Shown here: positions 60,916 to 61,299 of the stretch, piece by piece
Position numbering within the stretch: position 1 is the first letter of the stretch
How the letters are laid out: each line of letters begins with the position of its first letter
Assembly (NCBI RefSeq): GCF_054482595.1
Contig: NZ_CM137008.1
Length of the DNA: 64,000 nt
Strand: one strand, 5' to 3'
The notes under the pieces: generated by a model
What the model was told of the DNA's origin: nothing
Database searches by the model: none
The model's input: the letters and a program-made list of their open reading frames with translations, nothing else
Made by a program: the position numbers and the translations under genes

Positions 60916-61299
60916 AATCTATTCGCCTTATATATATCTGGAGGTTTTGAGGATGATGATTAATTATTATCGCCAGAACGAAATGTGCACGAAAAATTGC
61001 TATAAGAATTGTGTCACTTTTATCATTGCGATATGACCACTTCGTCATTAATCTCATGATCGTTTAAATACTACCGCCAAATCACGCAACGAACTTTGCT
61101 GGATTCAGTTTATGCTGCTGTAAATCAGCTCGCAGTAAACCTTTCAGACGCACCGTGATGTTATCAGTTGTTCTTTAAGCGTTTTGCTGGTGTACTCACT
61201 ACAAACGAATTGCGAATCGAATCAATGTGAAACGGAAAGGTACAATCTCCCTTTTTTTAGTGTTAACATCGCTCAACCGGGTGGAAGGTGAGAGGTTAA

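Follow-up and report, generated by a model that had tools for sequence, protein, structure and literature searches.

A 27-codon open reading frame with a strong Shine-Dalgarno-like sequence between espL1/arpB and thrS of Escherichia coli is probably a fortuitous frame in promoter DNA

Very short open reading frames (ORFs) of Escherichia coli are known from several settings that can be compared with the ORF described here. Unannotated short ORFs with initiation signals in ribosome profiling of E. coli were reportedly found by Weaver and colleagues in 2019. The leader peptide PheM of pheST is encoded within the regulated transcript itself, has many copies of the regulatory codon, and precedes a terminator/antiterminator. 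The gene thrS is controlled by its own product, ThrRS, which binds the thrS leader, and this translational autoregulation proceeds through the interaction of ThrRS with an operator. YniD is a small membrane protein of 35 aa, annotated and assigned to its own Pfam family (PF28032), and conserved counterparts were found in both Citrobacter and Escherichia sp. E4742.

The stretch of 64,000 nucleotides analysed here (the window) belongs to E. coli. Direct reading of the window sequence showed a candidate ORF of 27 codons at 60953-61036 on the plus strand, stop included, which encodes the peptide MMINYYRQNEMCTKNCYKNCVTFIIAI and ends with a TGA stop at 61034-61036. The frame opens with ATG ATG at 60953-60958, preceded by a Shine-Dalgarno-like (SD) GGAGG at 60940-60944 on the same strand, with a spacer of 8 nt before the first ATG. 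The earlier note had described a GGAGG 8 nt before ATGATG and a 27-codon frame between arpB and thrS, and its coordinates and sequence were found to be exact. The ORF is contained in the 522-bp spacer between the divergent genes espL1/arpB (59017-60915, minus strand) and thrS (threonine-tRNA ligase, 61438-63366, plus strand), and the G+C content was found to be 31% in the ORF, 38% in the spacer and 49% in the window. The spacer was 100% identical to that of strain XH990, and 97-99% identical to that of nearly all of 5,426 complete genomes. The counterpart of the ORF in MG1655 was found on the minus strand of NC_000913.3 at 1,803,056..1,802,973, where the K-12 allele differs from the window allele by one synonymous change and A26V, the K-12 peptide ending in ...IIVI. 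An imperfect palindrome with 21-nt arms, 76% complementary, was found at 60944-60979 (plus strand), and the predicted RNA fold has the SD and the start codons paired through it. The predicted minimum-energy RNA fold of 60925-61045 was no stabler than that of shuffled sequences (z = -0.71).

The peptide had been said to carry three Cys residues and a hydrophobic C-terminus. All three Cys are present in the window sequence, but a sizeable fraction of E. coli strains has Arg in place of C12. The hydrophobic C-terminus is likewise present, but it is just 8-9 residues long, and the highest mean of any 19-residue Kyte-Doolittle window is 0.38, far below that of a membrane helix, with a GRAVY of 0.05 for the entire peptide. 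No hydrophobic segment of transmembrane length (about 18-20 residues) was found in the peptide, the longest run being the one named. A membrane or toxin peptide, of the small membrane protein or type I toxin kind, was ruled out by hydropathy.

Codon usage was scored against the long genes of the window, with random stop-free frames of the same composition as the null. The ORF was found to have a codon log-likelihood of -0.9 against a null of -4.8 +/- 3.8, and 15% of the random frames scored at least as well. The same level (-0.5) was found for an antisense ORF of 59 codons (60878-61057, minus strand), which spans the entire candidate as well as the start of espL1/arpB and was itself judged a chance frame, showing that open frames come cheap in this DNA.

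No family match for the candidate peptide was found in Pfam or NCBIfam, and no match was found in Rfam for 60500-61700. No annotated feature is present between thrS and arpB of MG1655 (NC_000913.3). Across 30, 60 and 40 sampled RefSeq genomes (130 rows), no ORF was annotated under the match, the entry being either 'none' or just espL1 and thrS, and the gene calls of 10 further assemblies also lacked the ORF. In exact look-ups of seven peptide versions in a collection of 15 billion proteins, only one, a B2-type variant, was found to be present; it forms a two-member cluster with a 50-aa frame-fusion variant that results from a (TA)n indel. The peptide was absent from the full-text literature searched, and neither ORF nor peptide was matched in the supplements of Hücker 2017, Fesenko 2024 and smORFer.

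The (TA)n tract lies at 60928-60937, between the start of espL1/arpB and the SD, and was found to vary by indels, BL21 being 2 nt shorter. An indel in this tract fuses an upstream plus-strand frame (MSSDNDIV...) to the candidate, resulting in the ORF of 50 aa, which was called by one pipeline (P0133).

The ORF sequence was found as a single copy in 5,421 of the 5,426 complete E. coli genomes (about 99.7%), with 90-100% identity. No paralogous copy was found elsewhere in the E. coli genomes and none on true plasmids, the four 'plasmid' matches being mislabelled chromosomal records. Together with espL1/arpB, the ORF is contained in an AT-rich, E. coli-specific segment (58901-61224) for which no counterpart was found between yniD and thrS in the relatives. 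The neighbourhoods of the relatives were fetched with YdiY as the handle, in a comparison that covers the three non-coli relatives Escherichia sp. E4742, Citrobacter sp. NCU1 and Salmonella. Conservation of the frame in relatives, which had been proposed as a check, found no support in these three, as the locus is absent from Escherichia sp. E4742 and also from Citrobacter sp. NCU1 and Salmonella, where both the ORF and all of espL1/arpB are missing. In Citrobacter sp. NCU1 and Escherichia sp. E4742, yniD directly adjoins thrS with 301-302 bp between them. Salmonella was found to contain three unrelated genes between yniD and thrS, namely lpxR, a 104-aa ORF and an endonuclease (Endonuclease_NS) gene. 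Homology to the window ends at about 58900, just past yniD, and is found again from 61225 onwards in Salmonella, from 61371 in E4742 and from 61388 in Citrobacter.

The yniD-thrS junction was observed to be a variable insertion point (window 58901-61224; compared loci L017, L019 and L020). A scan of species-representative genomes with the ArpB protein, whose sensitivity was poor, returned no orthologous locus. Its sole match was a 350-bp low-coverage contig (NZ_VLXZ01000095.1, locus L013) of an Alkalicoccobacillus porphyridii assembly, carrying a 96%-identical ArpB fragment, and this contig almost certainly stems from E. coli DNA that contaminated the assembly. An ArpB homologue with 81% identity (P0007) was rejected as a diverged relative, because its contig (L014, Logan SRR27475715) differs from E. 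coli by C-to-T changes only, which points to bisulfite- or deamination-type data.

Variation within E. coli was counted in 14 aligned sequences, and 10 more gave the same haplotypes. Five sites of the ORF were found to vary, namely N4D (codon position 1), C12R (position 1), Cys16 (synonymous, position 3), Ile25 (synonymous, position 3) and A26V (position 2). The ratio of nonsynonymous to synonymous changes was 3:2 with no excess at third positions, counts so few in the 14 sequences that they carry little statistical power. One of the three Cys is removed by C12R in a common lineage. The lineages with this loss have GGAGA instead of GGAGG as SD, a form found in 9 of 24 further E. coli sequences (haplotypes here called B2-like), and the adjacent GAGG was found to be GAGT in other E. 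coli lineages. An IS2 element is inserted inside the frame in strain VL7S7. The frame was intact in every full-length E. coli copy examined, and at a divergence of at most 5% such intactness is also predicted by neutrality.

Variable sites were found at 5 of the 84 positions of the ORF against 32 of 134 positions in the stretch just downstream (Fisher p = 0.0004), a contrast for which promoter constraint or an unusually variable flank would be equally good explanations. The start of espL1/arpB was found to contain 3 variable sites in 36, about like the ORF, and the thrS promoter and leader just 3 in 198, which is much lower. The low diversity of the ORF is read as ordinary constraint on promoter DNA beside an unusually variable patch, and not as selection at the protein level. 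The downstream stretch (61037-61170) was observed to be hypervariable in the 14 genomes, with the 32 variable sites and a cluster of small indels in locus L016, whereas 61171-61239, upstream of the thrS -35 region, was invariant (0/69).

The gene espL1/arpB encodes a type III effector of the ShET2/EspL2 family and is intact in this strain (632 aa). It is a pseudogene in K-12, and frameshifts, truncations or internal stops were observed in K-12, BL21, B2-like and other sampled strains. Its start codon lies 37 nt from the start of the candidate ORF on the opposite strand, a position where the promoter of espL1/arpB is expected. Candidate promoter hexamers of espL1/arpB were found inside the ORF at 60963-61026 on the minus strand, as consensus matches only. 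In a scan of the minus strand, the best promoter-like matches were TGCACA-15-AATAAT (60989-60963) and TTTTCG-18-GATAAT (60995-60966), both inside the ORF. An RNA-polymerase SELEX peak was reported in the thrS/arpB spacer by Shimada et al. 2014 (PMC3946193), where the arpB hexamers are printed as ATGATG-16-TATAAC; they match ATGATA/TATAAC at about 61026-60999 in K-12, inside the ORF and on the opposite strand, and the hexamers given there for 'thrS' lie 6 nt past the candidate ORF stop. The number of promoter-like matches in the region was that expected from shuffles. No coordinate near 1.803 Mb was present in the accessible portion of the supplement of the Cappable-seq TSS paper, and a literature search on espL1 regulation returned nothing but papers on human ESPL1.

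The 27-codon frame is best explained, with a probability of roughly 0.8, as a fortuitous open frame in the upstream control region of espL1/arpB, and not as a protein-coding gene or a regulatory leader. The 84 nt would then act on the other strand as promoter and 5'-region DNA of espL1/arpB. At 31% G+C, ATG triplets and stop-free stretches of 27 codons are common, and the GGAGG would be a coincidence of five bases. Should an RNA cover the site, ribosomes might initiate on it, and the product would be noise and not a selected protein. Translation at a low level or under specific conditions is rather unlikely, and a selected function for the ORF is very unlikely.

Against chance stands the local rarity of the signal, since GGAGG with an 8-nt spacing is a near-ideal ribosome-binding site, and GGAGG located 5-10 nt before an ATG that opens at least 27 codons was found in only 0.4% of 2,000 dinucleotide shuffles of the spacer. 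When a 4-mer SD was allowed, the same combination was found in 10% of the spacer shuffles. Scaled from the shuffle rate, about 0.5 frames of the strict kind are expected per 64-kb window of this composition on both strands, and the candidate is therefore within chance expectation for a scan of the whole window. The window was found to contain 17 GGAGG+ATG pairs, of which about 12 open short frames only, and the spacer contained four ATG ORFs of at least 27 codons against 4.4 in shuffles. The earlier note had allowed that the frame could equally be chance, and this is the reading favoured by the evidence, given the chance-level occurrence, the missing coding signal, the lack of conservation depth and the lack of annotation.

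A different account takes the frame as a young micro-protein restricted to E. coli (a 'proto-gene'), with or without function, expressed through a weak promoter overlapping the start of espL1/arpB and a strong SD. The strength and good spacing of the SD would fit such a gene, as would a promoter-like match to 9 of 12 consensus positions, CTGATA-17-CATAAT at 60890-60918 on the plus strand, which is the only match able to drive the ORF and would give, from a predicted start at about 60925, a leader of 28 nt; this kind of match is, however, no commoner in the region than in shuffles, and in the predicted fold the start codons are base-paired. The frame is present in about 99.7% of the genomes and intact in all full-length copies seen, but at so low a divergence an intact frame carries no weight, and the 3:2 ratio, the loss of one Cys and the weakened SD of B2-like strains all speak against a constrained peptide, as does the absence of codon bias. 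Many unannotated initiation sites are known from profiling of E. coli, as described in two preprints (Stringer et al. bioRxiv 10.1101/2021.07.02.450978; Meydan et al. bioRxiv 10.1101/520783), but the candidate is not among the annotated K-12 small proteins. The suggestion of an unannotated small protein thus gained no positive support, with no annotation, absence from three relatives, 3:2 variation and random-like codon usage, and the proto-gene account is considered doubtful. A more specific form of it is quite improbable, namely a recently born E. coli-specific micro-protein gene on a divergent transcript from the espL1/arpB start region, whose product or translation would affect expression of the effector gene through interference, either transcriptional or by ribosomes, where the 5' ends overlap.

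The other reading raised earlier, an upstream regulatory ORF, would make the frame a leader whose translation controls thrS-infC expression. It lies upstream of thrS in the same orientation, no terminator-like site was found between the two or anywhere in 60700-61500, and a leader peptide, pheM, is present further down the same gene cluster. The position of the ORF nevertheless contradicts this role, since it ends at 61036, about 240 nt before the thrS promoter region (61240-61276), where promoter and leader begin. The inferred thrS promoter and leader/operator of about 162 nt (61240-61437, plus strand), with the 3 variable sites in 198 within E. coli mentioned above and with conservation in Salmonella, leave the ORF outside, and an extended -10-like element TGTTAACAT was found at 61261-61269, a position that fits the thrS leader length of roughly 162 nt. 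The conserved control region begins at 61225 in the comparison with Salmonella and at 61371-61388 in those with E4742 and Citrobacter, and these three relatives were found to lack the ORF and yet to keep thrS and its operator hairpin. The ORF contains just two Thr codons, scattered and with no run, and no attenuator structure, and control of thrS is known to be exerted by ThrRS on its own leader. A role as thrS leader ORF was rejected because the ORF ends upstream of the promoter and because species without it keep thrS and the operator, and also on the missing Thr-codon run and terminator, and it is extremely improbable. It was also considered that the frame could be what is left of an older, degraded gene on one strand or the other, such as a regulator that arrived with the effector gene. 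The antisense frame of 59 aa gives a match to the Pfam family CaiF/GrlA (E = 0.047), but this match is short and, at 14 bits, falls below the cut-off of 25. A search of 5.8 billion clusters gave the antisense frame no homologue from any species but E. coli, and the candidate peptide has no family match. A gene remnant was rejected on the absence of any homologue and is highly improbable.

The region upstream of thrS was itself observed to be a mosaic (window 61225-61437, compared with L017 9130-9334, L019 7042-7343 and L020 6928-7228). The part at 61225-61370 was homologous to Salmonella and not to E4742 or Citrobacter NCU1, which share a different sequence there, for example GACATATTTCGCAGAGTGAAGCGGGAATCAG. 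All four lineages were found to share just the last ~50 nt before thrS, containing the operator hairpin and the SD, and since only these are common to all four, the distal part of the thrS operator may differ between lineages.

If real, the ORF would enlarge the small proteome of E. coli by a further species-restricted micro-protein, encoded within the DNA that controls a type III effector gene, and would be of modest interest for de novo gene birth. Taken as a negative, the check has a value of its own, as a textbook-looking SD, ATG and 27-codon frame in AT-rich, horizontally acquired promoter DNA would arise by chance about once per two such windows. Annotation of the ORF is unwarranted without evidence from ribosome profiling or tagging.

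As a probably fortuitous frame, the candidate can be placed beside the known systems named at the outset. It resembles the short ORFs of E. coli defined by profiling, which are assigned to 'pervasive' or non-functional translation, in being short, intergenic and species-restricted, in its ATG with SD, and, as far as its few variable sites can show, in having no detectable purifying selection. What defines those ORFs is an initiation peak seen in experiments, whereas the candidate is described here from sequence and is missing from the current MG1655 annotation. With YniD (58737-58844, minus strand, about 2.1 kb away) it shares a very short length and the same neighbourhood, but it has neither the annotation, nor the Pfam family, nor the conservation in Citrobacter and Escherichia sp. 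E4742, and the codon score per codon was +0.27 for YniD against -0.03 for the candidate. With PheM, encoded in the same gene cluster, and with other leaders of synthetase and amino-acid operons it has in common that a tiny ORF precedes a synthetase gene and points the same way; unlike PheM, it lies outside the transcription unit, here that of thrS, and is not accompanied by a run of Thr codons or by a terminator. The ThrRS-operator autoregulation of thrS occupies the same spacer and accounts for the conservation near thrS, and it involves about 61276-61437 only, the candidate ORF being no part of it.
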